The notes under the pieces: generated by a model
What the model was told of the DNA's origin: nothing
Databases searched by the model: none
Seen by the model: the letters and a program-made list of their open reading frames with translations, nothing else
Shown here: one piece after another, positions 2,182-39,994 of the stretch
How positions within the stretch are numbered: the stretch's first letter is position 1
Layout of the letters: every line of letters begins with the position of its first letter
Source: Candidatus Poriferisodalis multihospitum
Lineage (GTDB): Bacteria; Actinomycetota; Acidimicrobiia; Acidimicrobiales; Poriferisodalaceae
Assembly (NCBI GenBank): GCA_028278755.1
Contig: JAPYOI010000062.1
Span: forward strand, 4,044-68,043
DNA length: 64,000 bases
Direction: 5' to 3'
Position numbers and translations under genes: made by a program

Positions 2182-2244
2182 ATTCCATTGCTCGAGACGG
2201 CAACGAGACACACCATCGGGGACGGTCTCGGTACCGTTGCCGCT

Positions 2245-3369
2245 GTGCCCACCGACAGCACTGCGAACAGCCCAGCGTTCCGGCTGAGCCAGTACAGCCA
2301 TGGTGCGGGCTGAGCGTGCAAGCTCGGACCCTCCGAGCTGGCGCAGGTTCTGCGCCATCTGACTCCCCCGTCGCACCCGGATCTGGTGGTCGGCACCGAT
2401 ACCAGTGACGATGCCGCCGTGTGGCGGCTTGACGGCGACCGGCTGCTGGTGACGTCGACTGATTTCTTCGCGCCGATCGTCGACGATGCGCGCACGTGGG
2501 GGCGCATTGCGGCCGCCAACGCCGCCAGCGACATCTACGCCATGGGTGCCAGCCCGCTGTTCGCCCTCAACCTGGCGGCTTGGCCCCGCGATGTGCTCCC
2601 ATTGGACTTGCTGGGCGAGGTGCTCGCCGGCGGTGCGGATGCCGCGGCAGACGGCGGCTGGGTGGTGGCCGGCGGTCACACGATCGACGGGCCAGAGCCG
2701 GTCTATGGCATGTCGGTCACCGGCACCATCGCATCTGCTGCCGGGGAAACAGGTCTGCTCACCAATGCCGGCGGGCGGCCGGGCCAGACGCTCGTGCTCA
2801 CCAAGCCGCTCGGCACCGGTCTGCTGGCGACCGCGCTCAAGCGTTCCGGCCCTGAGGCCACTGAGCCGGGTGGTGATCTGCATGCGGCCTATGAGGCCGG
2901 CGTGGCCGAGATGTGCCGACTCAACGACGCAGCCGCCGCCGCAGCAATCAAGGCGGGAGCCACCGCGGCCACCGATGTCACCGGCTTCGGACTTCTGGGA
3001 CACCTCGCAGAGCTCGCCGCGGCCAGCAACGTGAACGCCGTGCTCGATGCCGGCGTAGTGCCGCTGCTGCCCGATGTCATCGGGTTCGCGACCGGCGGCT
3101 TCGTACCCGGCGGCACCGGACGCAATCTGGATCACCTCGCTGAGCGCCTCGACGGCGGTGACGAGCTCACCCGCAGCGTGCTCGGAGACCCGCAGACCTC
3201 GGGCGGCCTGCTGTTCAGCTGCGACCCCCAACGCGCCGTCGGGGCAATGCGCGAGCTGCGCGGCAACGGGCACGACGCCGCAGTGATCGGCGAACTCACG
3301 AGCGGCAGCCGCGGCACGATCACGATTGCCGGTGCCGTCGCCGGAGGCACCGCCCTAAACGCCAACTGA
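2245..3369 (+). CDS. selD: selenide, water dikinase (selenophosphate synthetase), selenocysteine-containing (in-frame TGA at 2311..2313)
   Basis: The 2386..3369 ORF (VVGTDTSDDAAVWRL..TDFFAPIVDD..GRIAAANAASDIYAMG) continues upstream in frame through a TGA: ..AFRLSQYSHGAG-TGA-ACKLGPSELAQVLRHL. This aligns to E. coli SelD ..[13 protein letters not shown].. with the TGA at the catalytic Cys17 position. The start is uncertain (GTG 2245 chosen; TTG 2188 is an alternative). Confidence 0.85.
2321..2356 (+). promoter_or_regulatory. candidate bacterial SECIS region for the selD UGA (two adjacent perfect hairpins)
   Basis: Hairpin 1 is AGCUCGGA-CCC-UCCGAGCU (2321..2339), starting 7 nt after the UGA. 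Hairpin 2 is GGCGCAG-GUU-CUGCGCC (2340..2356), with a G/U-containing loop. I cannot tell from sequence alone which one binds SelB. Confidence 0.5.
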
Positions 3370-5050: not shown

Positions 5051-6508
5051 CTAGAGCTCGAGCAGGGCGTTCTCGATCACCTCGGTCAGCGCCGGGTGGA
5101 TATAGAACTGCCCGTGGGCCATCTGGTCGACGGTCTGGCCGAACGACATGCCCTGGATCAGCTGCTGGACCAGAGTCGAGGCCTGCGGGCCGATGATGTG
5201 GGCGCCGAGCAGCTCGCGGGTCTCCGCGTGAGCGATCAGCTTGGCGAAGCTGGTGCTGTCCTCCATCGCCCAGCCGTAGGCGGTATGGCCGAATGGCTTG
5301 TTCGCCACTGAGATCGGCAGACCAGCTGCACGTGCGTCCCGCTCGGTGAGGCCCACCGACGCGACCTGGGGGTGCGAGAACACCGCGTGGGGCACGAGTC
5401 GCTTATCCACGCTGCACATCGGCCCGGCCGCCTGATCCTCGGCCACCAGCAGGTTGTGTCTCAGCGCTCGCACCTGCGCGTTCGCGAGGTGCTTGAGCTG
5501 GATCTCGCTGGACAGGTCGCCGAAGGCCCACACGCCCGGCGCCGAGGTGCGAAAGAACTCATCGGTCAGCACGCGACCGTCCCGGTCCTCCACCCCTCCG
5601 AGGTCGAGCGCAAGCTGGTCGCCATTGGGCACCCGGCCGGTGGCCACCAGCAGCACATCGGCTTGCACCGACTCGGCACGACCGTCGCGGGTGAACTCGA
5701 CCGTGTAGGAGTTGCCGCGGGCACTCGGCGAGCCGTCGGTGGCATAGGCGAAATCGCCACGGGCCCCCTCCCCTGTATCGCCGCCGCCACTGACGCTGGT
5801 CACCGTCGCGCCGAGTCGCAGGTCGAAGTGGCGCTGCGCCGCTGACGTGAACGCAGCAGACACATCGTCGTCCTCGGCTCGCAGCAGCCGCTCGCCCCGG
5901 TTGACGACGGTGACGTTGGTACCCAGTGCCGAGAACACATAGCCCAGCTCGCAGGCGATATACCCGCCGCCCAGCACGATCATCGACTCAGGCAGCGAAT
6001 CCAGCCGCATCACCGTGTCCGAGGTGTGGAACGGCACTGTGCCCAGCCCGCGGTAGGGCGGCAGGAATGCCCGAGCGCCGGCGCCGAGCACCACGTGCCG
6101 CCCTGATACCGATTCGGTGCTGCCGTCATGCATGCGCACAGCCAGACGCCGGTCGCTCACGAAACGCGCGTCGCCCTCGAACACGGTGATGTTGGGGCAT
6201 TCGGCGCCGATTCGATAGCCACGTCCGCCGTCGGCAATCGGATCGATCCGCCCGAAGACGCGATCCCGAATGGCGGGCCAATCGGCGCTGTCAAAGCTGG
6301 CGGCGATGCCGTAGCTGCCCGCCGTCGCGATGGTGTCTGCGACGTCGGCCGCGTATACGAACATCTTGGAGGGGATGCACCCCACGTTCAGGCAGGTGCC
6401 GCCGAAGACGCCCCGTTCGACGATCGCAATCGACCAGTCGTCGAATTCAGGGCCGGGGATGGAGTTAGCCGAGCCGGTTCCGACGATGACCAGGTCGAAG
6501 TCTGACAT
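5051..6508 (-). CDS. mtr: mycothione reductase-like pyridine nucleotide-disulfide oxidoreductase
   Basis: MSDFDLVIVGTGSANS (Rossmann fold), GGTCLNVGCIPSK redox-active disulfide, C-terminal HPALTE dimerisation motif. The GTGSxNS N-terminus is typical of mycothione reductases. ATG 6508 is preferred to TTG 6520. Confidence 0.7.
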   Translation of the reverse strand: MSDFDLVIVGTGSANSIPGPEFDDWSIAIVERGVFGGTCLNVGCIPSKMFVYAADVADTIATAGSYGIAASFDSADWPAIRDRVFGRIDPIADGGRGYRIGAECPNITVFEGDARFVSDRRLAVRMHDGSTESVSGRHVVLGAGARAFLPPYRGLGTVPFHTSDTVMRLDSLPESMIVLGGGYIACELGYVFSALGTNVTVVNRGERLLRAEDDDVSAAFTSAAQRHFDLRLGATVTSVSGGGDTGEGARGDFAYATDGSPSARGNSYTVEFTRDGRAESVQADVLLVATGRVPNGDQLALDLGGVEDRDGRVLTDEFFRTSAPGVWAFGDLSSEIQLKHLANAQVRALRHNLLVAEDQAAGPMCSVDKRLVPHAVFSHPQVASVGLTERDARAAGLPISVANKPFGHTAYGWAMEDSTSFAKLIAHAETRELLGAHIIGPQASTLVQQLIQGMSFGQTVDQMAHGQFYIHPALTEVIENALLEL

Positions 6509-6570
6509 GGGCGCAGTCAATCAGCGCCGGCCACGCCGGGCGCATTGCTGGCCGCGAGGCGCCGCACGCC

Positions 6571-16760: not shown

Positions 16761-17828
16761 GTGCGCACAGCCATCGGGTTCGGAGGGCCGGCGTCGGGCA
16801 AGCGGCGCGACTGGGACGAACAGGTCGAGTTCCTGCGGGAGGCCGACCGCCTCGGCGTCGACATCCTGTGGTCGGCTGAGGCATGGGGCATGGACGGTGT
16901 CAGCACGCTGGCCTACCTCGCTGCGGTAACCGAACGCTGCCAGCTCGGCACGGGCATCTTGCAGATCTCGGCCCGCGCCCCGGTCATGACAGCGATGACC
17001 GCGCTCTCGCTCGCGGCAATGACCGGTGACCGGTTCATCCTGGGGCTCGGGGTCAGCGGGCCGCAGGTGGTCGAGGGCCTGCACGGGGTGCGCTTTGGCG
17101 ACCCGCTGGGACGGCTGCGCGAGACAGTGGACATCTGCCGCCAGGCCTTTGCCGGCGAGAAGATCGCCTACGACGGCCGCCACCATGTGCTCCCGCTGCC
17201 AGGCGGGCAGGGCAAGTCGTTGCGACTCGCGCAGCCCGCCAACGATTCGATCGAGATCTGGCTCGCGACCCTCGGTCCCAAGTCTCTGCGCTACACCGGC
17301 GAGGCCGCCGACGGCTGGGTCGGCGTGTGCTTCGTGCCGAGTCGCCCCGAGGTCACCTGGGGTCAGGTAGTGGACGCAGTTGCAGCCGCAGGACGCCCGC
17401 CGGGCTCGGTGGCCTGCCAGGCCGGCGGCGCAGTCGAGTTCGGCGACGATCTCGACGCCCTCATCGAGCCGCGGCGACCTGGCCTTGCGTTCACGCTGGG
17501 CGCCATGGGATCGGCCACCGCCAACTTCTACAACGACGCCTACCGCCGAGCAGGCTTCGAAGCAGAGTGCCGCCACGTGCAGCACCTGTGGCTCGACGGC
17601 GACCGGGCCGCAGCAGCGGCTGCAGTCCCGGATCGACTCGTGACCGAGACCAACTTCTTGGGCACCCACGAACAGGTCATGAACCAAGTGCGGGCGTACC
17701 GAGACGCCGGCGTGGATGTCCTGCGCCTGCAGCCTGAAGGGCCGACCGCCGCAGCCCGGCTGGACACGCTGGCGGCGATGATCGACATCGTCCAAGCCGT
17801 CAACGCCGAGCCCGCCGGGGCGACCTGA
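16761..17828 (+). CDS. LLM-class (luciferase-like) F420-dependent oxidoreductase
   Basis: ..[52 protein letters not shown].. is typical of the LLM flavin/F420 oxidoreductase family. Confidence 0.8.
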
Positions 17829-37513: not shown

Positions 37514-38788
37514 GTGTCGAATTCCCCGAAACGCATAGTCATCGTCGGTGCGTCGCTGGCAGGTGCGCGCGCCGCGCACAGCGTGCGCGCCGCGGGTCAT
37601 GACGGGCCGCTGACGCTCATCGGCGCCGAGCCGCATCTCCCCTACGACCGGCCTCCCCTCTCCAAGGAGTTCCTCACCGGCGATCAAGACCCCGGAACGC
37701 TGGCCCTTGACCCGGATGGCGCCTACGACGACCTCGATGTAGAGGTCATGCTGAGCACCCACGCCGTGGGGCTCGACGCCGACGCCCGCGTCGTCATGGT
37801 CGCCCCGGCGGCGGGCGGGAACGCCGAGACAGTGCCGTTCGACGGCCTCGTCATCGCGACGGGCGCAGCGGCTCGACCGCTGCCCGGCGTCGGGAACATG
37901 GCAGGCGTGCACACACTGCGGACCCTCGACGACTCGATGGCCATCCGGGAAGGTCTCATCGCCGGCGCACGGGTCGCCGTGGTGGGCGGCGGCTTCATCG
38001 GTTCGGAGGTCGCCGCTTCTGCGGCGGCTCGCGGCTGCGAAGTGACGGTCATCGAAGCGGCCCCGGCCCCGCTGGTGCGCGGGCTGGGTGCCGAGATGGG
38101 CACACGCGTCGGTGCCCTCCACGGCCACAACGGCGTCGAGCTGCGGCTCGGCGTCGGGGTAGACGGCGTGCTCGGAACCGATCAGGTGGAAGCCGTCGCC
38201 ATGGCGGACGGCAGCCGGATCCCCGCCGACCTGGTGGTCGTGGGCATCGGGGTGGTGCCCAATACGGCGTGGCTGGAGGGCTCGGGCCTGCAGGTCGACA
38301 ACGGCGTGGTCTGCGATGCGACGCTGTGCTGCGGGCCCCCGGGCGTTTACGCCGTCGGCGACGTGGCACGGGCGCCCAACGGGTGGCTCAGCCCGTGGCA
38401 CGGCGACCGGCCGATCCGGGTCGAGCACTGGACCGCAGCGGTGGAGCACGGCATGGCAGTGGGCCGCAACCTGGTGGCCCCCGCAGAGGCGCAGCCCTAC
38501 AACTCTGTGCCATTTGTCTGGTCGGATCAATATGACGCCCGAATCCAGATTGCTGGACATCCCGACGCCGACGACGACGTGGAGGTGCTCGTCGGATTGG
38601 CTGCAGACGACCCCGATACGGGCGGTCCGGATTCAGGCCGCTCCTTCTTGGCCGGTTACCGGCGCAACGGCCGGCTGAGCGGGGTCATGGCGCTCGACGC
38701 GATCAGGCCGTTCGTGCGATTCCGCCGACTCCTGGCAGCTCACCCATCGTGGGACGACGCGCTGGAGCTTGCGGCCACGCTGAACTGA
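37514..38788 (+). CDS. FAD-dependent pyridine nucleotide-disulfide oxidoreductase, ferredoxin reductase type
   Basis: RIVIVGASLAGARAA (FAD), ..YDRPPLSKEFL.., ..VAVVGGGFIGSEVAA (NAD), ..VYAVGDVA.. Confidence 0.8.
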   Translation: MSNSPKRIVIVGASLAGARAAHSVRAAGHDGPLTLIGAEPHLPYDRPPLSKEFLTGDQDPGTLALDPDGAYDDLDVEVMLSTHAVGLDADARVVMVAPAAGGNAETVPFDGLVIATGAAARPLPGVGNMAGVHTLRTLDDSMAIREGLIAGARVAVVGGGFIGSEVAASAAARGCEVTVIEAAPAPLVRGLGAEMGTRVGALHGHNGVELRLGVGVDGVLGTDQVEAVAMADGSRIPADLVVVGIGVVPNTAWLEGSGLQVDNGVVCDATLCCGPPGVYAVGDVARAPNGWLSPWHGDRPIRVEHWTAAVEHGMAVGRNLVAPAEAQPYNSVPFVWSDQYDARIQIAGHPDADDDVEVLVGLAADDPDTGGPDSGRSFLAGYRRNGRLSGVMALDAIRPFVRFRRLLAAHPSWDDALELAATLN

Positions 38789-38816: not shown

Positions 38817-39188
38817 TCAGCTGACGGTCTGGTCCACCTCGTCACGCTCGGCATAGAAGCTCATCAGACCGGCGATCTCGGCCATCTCGGGGATCGGATC
38901 GGGATAGGACCACACGATGTCCTCATAGCTCTGACCCTTGACTGCTACTGACCAGTAGCTGGCATCGCCCTTCCACGGTCAATGAGTGGACAGCACAGTC
39001 GGGTGCAGCAACTCCATCTTCACGTCTGAAACCGGCAGGTAGTGGCGCGGCGGGAGCCGTCCTTCGGTCAGCACCAGAGCCGAGGTCGAATCGGCCACGA
39101 CCACGCCGCCAACCCGGACGGTAACCCGCCCTGGCTCCTGCAAAACCGAAATCTCGGGCTTGCGATGTTCAGTTGCCGTCTCGCTCAT
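38817..39188 (-). CDS. DUF427 domain protein with in-frame TGA (38981..38979, codon 70): candidate selenoprotein
   Basis: Translation is MSETATEHRKPEISVLQEPGRVTVRVGGVVVADSTSALVLTEGRLPPRHYLPVSDVKMELLHPTVLSTH-TGA-PWKGDASYWSVAVKGQSYEDIVWSYPDPIPEMAEIAGLMSFYAERDEVDQTVS. The TGA falls on the conserved Cys of the DUF427 ..CP(Y/F/W)KGxAxY.. motif. The frame stays open for 53 codons after it. SD AAGGGGAG precedes ATG 39188. Confidence 0.7.
38944..38959 (-). promoter_or_regulatory. candidate SECIS hairpin for the DUF427 UGA
   Basis: The mRNA reads GCUACU-GGUC-AGUAGC, a perfect 6-bp stem starting 19 nt after the UGA. The GGUC apical loop is the same as the SelB-binding loop of the E. coli fdhF SECIS. 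Confidence 0.5.
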
Positions 39189-39293
39189 CAGCGCTCCCCT
39201 TCGTCGGCAGCGTGTCGCTGCAGGCCACATCATGGCACTGCGCTCACTGACGATGATGCGTTCGCTGCGCCGGGCGCCCTGATCGAGCACAGA

Positions 39294-39902
39294 TCAGTTG
39301 ATGATCTTGAGGCCGAGCAATTCGCACAGATAGGGATGCTGGCTGCGGATGCGGTCCTCCACTGCGTCCATCCTCGTGTCGTCGTTCAGTGCCTGCAGCA
39401 GCAGGAGCTCGAATGCCGGCAGTTCCAGGCTGCCGCCGACCCGCTCGAGGAAGCCGATCACCGCGGCGGCGCCGGATCGCTCCTGGAATCGCCGCAGGGC
39501 CGCGTCGTCGGTGCCCATGATCTCGCACGAGCTGAAATAGATGATCCGACCGCCGGCCCGCCCATCGAGCACGTCGGCGAGTTCCTCCAGGGTCACCTTG
39601 GCGGAGCCGCTCAGCCAGAGCTCTCCAGGTTTGCCGTGAAATCCGAAGTGCCCGATCTGATAGTCGCAGTAGCGCTGCTCTGTCCATTTGCGGACGTAGT
39701 AGAAGAGCTCGGGCGCGGTGCCGATGTCGCGCCGGATGAACTTCAGGCCGCTGAGCTCGCGGACGGTCTGCAGGAGCGTGGCCACGCCGAACTGCTGGCG
39801 GAGATCCGCATCGGAGTCGTCGCCTTCAAATGCGAAGACTCCTGTGGCGAGCCGCCGTGACACCCTGCCGCCCGGAGCAACCGCTGGCACACCCTTTGCC
39901 AT
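39294..39902 (-). CDS. hypothetical protein with caspase/CHAT-like His...Cys pattern
   Basis: 202-aa ORF. ..YQIGHFGFHGKPGEL.. and ..GRIIYFSSCEIMG.. resemble the beta-strand-His-Gly and beta-strand-Cys dyad of the clan CD peptidase fold. GC looks lower than in neighbouring genes. It lies directly next to tRNA-Pro. Confidence 0.6.
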   Translation of the reverse strand: MAKGVPAVAPGGRVSRRLATGVFAFEGDDSDADLRQQFGVATLLQTVRELSGLKFIRRDIGTAPELFYYVRKWTEQRYCDYQIGHFGFHGKPGELWLSGSAKVTLEELADVLDGRAGGRIIYFSSCEIMGTDDAALRRFQERSGAAAVIGFLERVGGSLELPAFELLLLQALNDDTRMDAVEDRIRSQHPYLCELLGLKIIN

Positions 39903-39916
39903 GACAAACCCCGCTG

Positions 39917-39994
39917 TGGTCGGGCTGAGAGGATTTGAACCTCCGACCCCTGGTCCCCCAGACCAGTGCGCTAACCAGACTGCGCCACAGCCCG
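39917..39994 (-). tRNA. tRNA-Pro (anticodon GGG), CCA end encoded
   Basis: Reverse complement is CGGGCTG-TG-GCGC-AGTCTGGTTA-GCGC-A-CTGGT-CTGGGGG-ACCAG-GGGTC-GGAGG-TTCAAAT-CCTCT-CAGCCCG-A-CCA. This gives a perfect cloverleaf, a TTCAAAT T-loop and anticodon loop C-U-GGG-G-G. Confidence 0.95.

Follow-up and report, generated by a model that had tools for sequence, protein, structure and literature searches.

The DUF427 gene on the minus strand of a 64-kb window from contig JAPYOI010000062.1 (38817..39188) contains an in-frame TGA at codon 70, and this codon is very probably read as selenocysteine (Sec) by the standard bacterial route, giving a protein of 123 residues. The window, by which we mean the whole analysed stretch of 64,000 nucleotides, comes from Candidatus Poriferisodalis, a sponge-associated lineage (Acidimicrobiia, Acidimicrobiales, Candidatus Poriferisodalaceae), and its IspH shares 97% identity with a protein of a Candidatus Poriferisodalis sp. 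A preceding inspection of the DNA letters had proposed the gene as a candidate new selenoprotein (referred to as the original prediction). This proposal is supported by a Sec/cysteine (Cys) column in the family, by conservation of the UGA together with the reading frame behind it, and by a selD gene of the Sec type in the window.

In the proposed mechanism, the ribosome would reach the UGA and a hairpin located 19–34 nt downstream would recruit SelB carrying GTP and Sec-tRNA(Sec). Sec would then be inserted, and translation would proceed to the real stop codon at 38819..38817. The inserted residue would occupy the position of the only Cys that is invariant in the family, within the motif T-x-C/U-P-W-K-G-x-A-S-Y-W. 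From the sequence, we infer both the actual insertion of Sec and the binding of SelB to the hairpin. The gene is composed of the following elements.

38817..39188, minus strand: putative DUF427 selenoprotein coding sequence (CDS), 123 sense codons including the UGA read as Sec, then a terminal TGA
39194..39201, minus strand: Shine-Dalgarno-like AAGGGGAG, read from the sequence, with a presumed function
38979..38981, minus strand: proposed Sec codon TGA, codon 70, aligned with the invariant Cys of T-x-C-P-[WYF]-K-G-x-A-S-Y-W
38817..38819, minus strand: true terminator TGA, codon 124

The in-frame UGA at the conserved cysteine column

Translation of the DUF427 gene is predicted to start at ATG 39188..39186, which is separated from AAGGGGAG by a spacer of 5 nt. 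Behind the codon-70 TGA, the same frame continues for 53 more sense codons up to the TGA at 38819..38817. Coordinates, TGA codon, 53-codon continuation and upstream Shine-Dalgarno sequence were all present as given in the original prediction. Gene callers cut the gene to 69 amino acids (aa), or to 103 aa when they start from GTG 39290. Called N-termini in this region (38979..39290, minus strand) are inconsistent, amounting to 69 aa, 103 aa, or 131 aa in a relative, and only ATG 39188 with its Shine-Dalgarno-like sequence is kept as a start across orthologues.

When Cys was placed at position 70, the joined product matched the entire profile of PF04248 (DUF427, now named NTP_transf_9), covering positions 1–93 of 93 with 122.2 bits and an E-value of 7.8e-36 (cut-off 22.1). 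This is the complete DUF427 domain that had been claimed. When the two halves were compared separately, they matched profile positions 1–47 and 50–93, indicating that the piece behind the TGA is itself homologous to the family. Moreover, the window protein exhibits all invariant family columns (the T-x-C-P motif, W-S-Y and E/Y/D), with U replacing the invariant C. The column of the TGA is occupied by Cys in 46/46 full-length homologues of an alignment with a mean column identity of 32%. Cys is also present at this column in PDB 3DJM from Rhodobacter sphaeroides, the one solved structure of the family. The predicted location of the TGA on the conserved Cys was thereby confirmed.

These results bear on the possibility that the UGA is a genuine stop codon, that the 69-aa half-domain is functional and that the downstream part is separately expressed or otherwise conserved. 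Since termination as a rule competes with the insertion of Sec, a certain amount of 69-aa product can be expected. However, the two halves make up one Pfam domain with a single compact beta-tent fold, half of which would probably be unstable. The DNA just after the TGA contains neither a start codon nor a ribosome-binding site, the first Met being located 31 codons downstream, and the pattern of substitutions behind the TGA is that of coding sequence read in the same frame. A genuine stop is therefore very improbable.

Comparison with relatives revealed that both the TGA and the frame behind it are conserved. Truncated homologues of 69–80 aa formed 39 clusters (90% identity) that are 71–93% identical to the shared N-terminal part. 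All 39 end with ...S[TS]H directly before the Cys column. Odd N-terminal extensions are present in some collection entries (P0095, P0107). When the 69-aa N-terminal part was used as a query against representatives of 50%-identity clusters, only one further likely Sec-type truncation came up, P0297 (...DTSTT). DNA of orthologues was fetched for several truncated clusters via exact-protein look-ups, and 10 distinct orthologous CDSs including that of the window were compared. TGA at codon 70 and the stop at codon 124 were conserved in 10/10, and in each case the 53-codon tail was uninterrupted and identical in length. The ratio of non-synonymous to synonymous substitution rates (dN/dS) of the downstream part was 0.1–0.4 and no higher than that of the upstream part, where the synonymous divergence (dS) between lineages reached about 1.

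A pseudogene, in which a nonsense mutation created codon 70 and left the downstream frame to decay, would fit the behaviour of gene callers, which stop at the TGA, and the N-terminal extensions of P0095 and P0107. In contrast, the same TGA occurs in the 39 clusters and in 10 distinct CDSs spanning a dS of about 1, and six or more unrelated lineages have a TGA at this column. Neither decay nor a frameshift or further stop was found behind the TGA in the orthologues, whose frames are intact, equally long and under selection as described above. A pseudogene is hardly conceivable on these data. Furthermore, no opposite-strand open reading frame (ORF) of at least 40 aa was found over the downstream part, where an overlapping feature might have explained the conservation. 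Nor is a sequencing or assembly artefact at codon 70 a realistic option. Nothing specific speaks for it apart from the probable origin of the window from a metagenome-assembled genome, and it is refuted by the presence of the same codon in assemblies of independent origin (ENA, JGI, Logan and NCBI), including several contigs of 3–4.7 Mb. Among the ENA contigs carrying the gene are ERZ25069711 ctg17333 (4.44 Mb), ERZ25072076 ctg246034 (3.86 Mb) and ERZ28763718 ctg125501 (4.03 Mb).

The full-length orthologue P0001/L021 is 74% identical to the window protein and carries TGC at codon 70. It is located in the same neighbourhood, which comprises IspH, radical-SAM/DUF512, Der, tRNA-Pro, DUF427, the convergent reductase, the large and small chains of ribonucleotide reductase, and MeaB. 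A syntenic orthologue with TGC thus exists, and the window gene and P0001/L021 are, by alignment and gene order, an orthologous pair of predicted Sec and Cys forms. A scan of a genome collection with back-translated patterns, which were too unspecific, displayed no Sec orthologue among the matches listed, and at least seven distant Cys-type loci.

To extend the comparison beyond close orthologues, a metagenome contig collection was scanned at the DNA level for T-x-TGA-P-x-K-G-x-A-x-Y. The scan returned 29 loci. Of these, 27 are genuine DUF427 genes in which the frame is intact and the Cys column is occupied by TGA; their GC contents are 0.48–0.72. Their architectures comprise single-domain genes, a short subtype, tandem genes with Sec in domain 1 and Cys in domain 2, and tandem genes with Sec in domain 2.

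Tandem, Sec in domain 1: L028/L042, L029, L030/L031/L035/L036/L039/L041/L045/L049/L050, L032/L046
Tandem, Sec in domain 2: L024, L043, L051

According to pairwise identity, the Sec-type genes fall into at least six divergent lineages. For several of them the nearest sampled relative is a Cys form, which is about as close as, or closer than, the Sec forms of other lineages. The tandem Sec/Cys proteins provide a natural internal comparison of Sec and Cys within one polypeptide.

The candidate SECIS hairpin and the probable Sec-decoding capacity of the host

Bacterial Sec codons are followed by a Sec insertion sequence (SECIS), and a candidate for such an element was found directly downstream of the codon-70 UGA.

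38944..38959, minus strand: candidate SECIS core GCUACU-GGUC-AGUAGC, 6-bp stem and 4-nt loop starting with GG
38944..38984, minus strand: block without synonymous variation in 10 orthologues, codons 69–81 extended to the hairpin end

Sequence and position of this hairpin (38959..38944) were correct in the original prediction. Its stem starts 19 nt and its loop 25 nt after the UGA. The published model of bacterial SECIS elements demands a loop of 3–9 nt, an upper stem of 4–16 bp, G in the first two loop positions, a distance of 16–37 nt between UGA and loop, and a minimum free energy (MFE) of at most −7.5 kcal/mol (PMC13188914). With its 4-nt GGUC loop, 6-bp stem and 25-nt spacing, the DUF427 hairpin agrees with this geometry. 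The energy threshold is reached marginally and only with flanking pairs (−8.2 to −10.6 kcal/mol). When the UGA and the nucleotides upstream of it were excluded from folding, because they are unpairable once the ribosome sits on the UGA, the hairpin dominated the folding ensemble with pair probabilities of 0.59–0.99.

The hairpin alone is weak evidence, because perfect hairpins of 6 bp or more with this geometry follow 4.7% of the window's TGA trinucleotides. It is the comparative data that carry the weight. Among the 10 orthologues, the only change within the block 38944..38984 is a non-synonymous AGC>CGC exchange that preserves the stem. Synonymous variants were absent from codons 69–81, whereas they were found in 64% of the degenerate codon columns elsewhere in the gene, and the suppression of synonymous change across codons 71–83 was significant (Fisher p = 0.007). 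Two of the codons fixed in the hairpin block are rare in the genes of the window, namely TCA and GTA, which account for 6.3% of the codons for Ser and 3.8% of those for Val, respectively. In contrast, the Cys orthologue encodes the same SYWSV peptide with TAT, TCG and GTG, which destroys the stem. The tandem clades exhibit their own invariant hairpin, GGCCAG-GUA-CUGGUC, on the A-R-Y-W-S codons, and its loop is located 20 nt behind the UGA. A synonymous-site test in the marine tandem clade pointed in the same direction and was not significant (p = 0.10), the sequences being too similar.

The capacity to decode UGA as Sec is indicated by a selD gene in the same window.

2188..3369, plus strand: selD (selenophosphate synthetase) with AIRS and AIRS_C domains, 358 bits on TIGR00476
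2340..2356, plus strand: candidate selD SECIS GGCGCAG-GUU-CUGCGCC, loop 33 nt after the UGA and beginning with G

This gene contains an in-frame TGA (2311..2313) at the catalytic position in the motif SHGAG-U-ACK, so that the Sec-containing selD claimed for the window was found as described. Its start codon is uncertain (TTG 2188 or GTG 2245), and ORF lists split or truncate the gene. Two strong consecutive hairpins follow the selD UGA, GCUCGGA-CCC-UCCGAGC and then the candidate element GGCGCAG-GUU-CUGCGCC. A scan of the window for other recoded genes with in-frame TGA, based on the GC content at third codon positions, produced only noise in this high-GC DNA.

Near-cognate decoding, suppressor decoding or a SelB-type system that delivers Cys might also lead to read-through of the UGA, with Cys, Trp or Gly inserted. 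The evidence for Sec consists of nucleic-acid signals only, and a Cys at this column would obviously be functional, both of which leave some room for such decoding. Among the ordinary stop codons of the window, however, TGA is the most frequent, terminating 16/23 sampled genes whose stop codon was read, and it also terminates the DUF427 gene itself. General codon reassignment is therefore excluded. In addition, the synonymous-constrained structure lies at the place expected for a SECIS and is absent from the TGC orthologue, and a Sec-dependent selD is kept in the genome, which is sensible only if Sec is inserted. Read-through with another amino acid is accordingly rated as unlikely, though it is the least unlikely of the alternatives to Sec insertion.

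Several observations weigh against decoding of the codon-70 UGA as Sec. The genes selA and selB and a tRNA-Sec were not found within the 64-kb window. The bare 6-bp hairpin has a free energy of −7.3 kcal/mol, just short of the −7.5 threshold, and the MFE fold of 70 nt including the UGA is a different helix (z = −0.36 compared with shuffled sequences). In an energy-only hairpin scan, Sec sites had a median of −11.5 kcal/mol versus −8.3 kcal/mol for Cys sites, with overlapping ranges, and five low-GC Sec loci gave no hairpin fitting the model. The hairpin is invariant within its clade and shows no compensatory covariation. Finally, neither the DUF427 nor the selD hairpin was matched by any Rfam SECIS model at gathering or permissive thresholds, a result that is uninformative. 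As the energy tests do not discriminate, we relied on conservation instead of stability.

Gene neighbourhood, fold and possible function

The DUF427 gene is convergent with a flavoprotein gene.

37514..38788, plus strand: convergent ferredoxin-reductase-type flavoprotein with Pyr_redox_2 and Reductase_C domains

Only 28 bp separate the two stop codons, exactly as predicted. Synteny of DUF427 and the reductase is found in most orthologues; the genes are not co-transcribed and not always adjacent. In one Poriferisodalis lineage (L018, 6525..9751, and L019), an Acyl_transf_3-like gene and an fn3-repeat gene are located between them. Given this insertion of two genes and the convergent orientation, the link to the reductase is not obligatory.

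Upstream of DUF427, a tRNA-Pro(GGG) gene is present in all orthologous loci (39917..39994 in the window, minus strand). It is separated from DUF427 by a DUF6642 gene in the window (39294..39902, minus strand), L017 and L020, and lies about 30–80 nt from the DUF427 start in other lineages. Two further genes of the window, encoding a mycothione reductase (5054..6520, minus strand; 613 bits on NF005884) and an F420-dependent LLM-class oxidoreductase (16761..17825, plus strand), are typical of the redox metabolism of Actinomycetota and could matter if DUF427 uses mycothiol.

The neighbours of Sec-type DUF427 genes are varied. They encode pirin, MsrB, PilZ, methyltransferase, disulfide reductase, aminotransferase, TldD, acyltransferase and a ferredoxin-thioredoxin-reductase-like protein. 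The marine tandem Sec-DUF427 genes have a conserved upstream neighbour, a pirin gene (L035, 5387..6373 on the reverse complement; L031, L039, L041). The in-frame stop in the L035 pirin gene was rejected as a case of recoding, being a TAG where relatives have TGG, which points to a mutation or sequencing error. An MsrB gene with a SelR domain (L042, 11484..11918) lies two genes downstream of a tandem Sec-DUF427 gene; this is a single case and possibly a coincidence. In L026 (126..695, GC content 0.48), a fusion of ferredoxin-thioredoxin-reductase-beta-like and rubredoxin-like parts is located directly upstream of a short-type Sec-DUF427 gene. At most, the neighbours lend a slight and anecdotal redox flavour. 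Their heterogeneity leaves the reasoning from the Sec/Cys pair and the beta-tent fold as the only grounds for a catalytic or redox role.

The AlphaFold2 model of the Cys orthologue P0001 had a predicted local distance difference test score of 91.4. Its best structural match was 3DJM, with a TM-score of 0.81–0.96 and a root-mean-square deviation of 1.1 Å, followed by weak similarity to Mis18/Yippee beta-tent domains. DUF427 had already been assigned to the beta-tent fold, as a family lacking the zinc site (PMC4287342), and the model is in line with this. In the model, strand 68–77 ends with the Cys/Sec position, which is immediately followed by the P-W-K-G turn of the C-terminal beta-meander and then by two strands bearing the invariant residues Y85/W86 and W100/Y102 (P0001 numbering). 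By analogy with other beta-tent proteins, the C-terminal meander and its loops would form a ligand cradle, and C-P-x-K-G looks like a degenerate C-P-x-C-G zinc knuckle.

Sec is almost always found at redox-active or nucleophilic catalytic positions. Because of this rule, by which Sec replaces a reactive Cys, and because of the position before the turn of the putative cradle, the Cys/Sec residue may serve an enzyme as its redox-active or nucleophilic centre for reactions with a small ligand, in principle as in MsrB/SelR, a proposal for which we see the chances as evenly divided. Since Sec is almost always reactive and the Sec/Cys pair is recurrent, the invariant Cys is the starting place in the search for a DUF427 activity. 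In the literature on DUF427, no member with an assigned function was found, and most matches to "DUF427" were to DUF4277 or DUF4278. A link to deoxyhypusine monooxygenase in ECDomainMiner is only a low-score statistical association and was discarded.

Comparison with known selenoprotein systems

PF04248/DUF427 is absent from the 119 prokaryotic selenoprotein families and subfamilies compiled in a review of May 2026 (PMC13188914, Table 1), consistent with the earlier statement that it is not a described selenoprotein family. No literature linking DUF427 with selenoproteins was found, and the deep-Sep supplements do not mention it; older lists, such as the Science 2007 Sec/Cys survey, may do so. 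No NCBIfam model matches the DUF427 protein, which also excludes GOS_B (NF041374). The hypothetical families GOS_A, GOS_B and GOS_C were rejected as its identity, the GOS families being reported to lack a conserved domain. In sum, the DUF427 gene of the window is very probably a genuine selenoprotein gene, predicted to use the ordinary bacterial mechanism of Sec insertion, from a family missing from current catalogues.

As the recoding mechanism is already known, the gene extends a known class without introducing a new principle. It adds a selenoprotein to Acidimicrobiia and sponge symbionts, which are little covered in selenoproteome surveys. It also reveals a systematic mis-annotation, by which the members of 39 clusters appear as 69-aa fragments with no NCBIfam model to rescue them, and by which the tandem forms are split likewise. 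The different hairpins would represent lineage-specific SECIS solutions overlaid on the same peptide motif.

The SECIS of E. coli fdhF has a GGUC apical loop and a bulged U in the upper stem, and its minimal hairpin starts about 11 nt after the UGA. Like fdhF and the selD gene of the window, the DUF427 gene has its UGA at a presumably catalytic Cys/Sec position and an in-ORF stem-loop directly downstream. Of the fdhF likeness suggested in the original prediction, the GGUC loop sequence held. In contrast to fdhF, the perfect 6-bp stem contains no bulged U and starts 19 nt after the UGA, so that the loop begins at 25 nt instead of about 18 nt, some 7 nt further downstream, and the protein belongs to a different family. 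With the selD element, the DUF427 hairpin shares a small loop starting with G (GUU and GGUC, respectively) and a UGA-to-loop distance within 16–37 nt, but no sequence similarity beyond the G-rich loop. The DUF427 hairpin is predicted to work like a SECIS but is not a copy of the fdhF type.

Cys forms of DUF427 including 3DJM have the same domain, motifs and predicted fold, but encode the Cys by TGC or TGT and lack the downstream hairpin. At the level of the fold, the closest parallel is MsrB/SelR (PF01641), in some members of which the single catalytic Cys is replaced by Sec. Both families belong to the beta-tent (MSS4-like) fold class, according to PMC4287342 and our fold search. The likeness is restricted to the fold; there is no detectable sequence similarity, and the window protein matches PF04248 only. 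Most members of MsrB/SelR have CxxC zinc sites, whereas DUF427 has no zinc site (PMC4287342), and its Cys is located in the C-P-x-K-G turn and not in the active-site strand of MsrB. MsrB is likewise not listed as a selenoprotein in the prokaryotic catalogue (PMC13188914). DUF427 has about an equal chance of being, or not being, a Cys/Sec-dependent family of beta-tent enzymes with a catalytic lone invariant Cys and with repeated origins of Sec in marine, soil and sponge-associated bacteria. If this is true, it would be only the second Sec-using beta-tent family after MsrB/SelR.

Other predicted selenoproteins of the DUF type are DUF523, DUF3179, DUF166, DUF1573 and DUF1858 (PMC13188914, Table 1). 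Like predictions of the DUF523 type, the DUF427 selenoprotein combines a Sec/Cys pair with evidence for a bacterial SECIS and is a high-confidence prediction.

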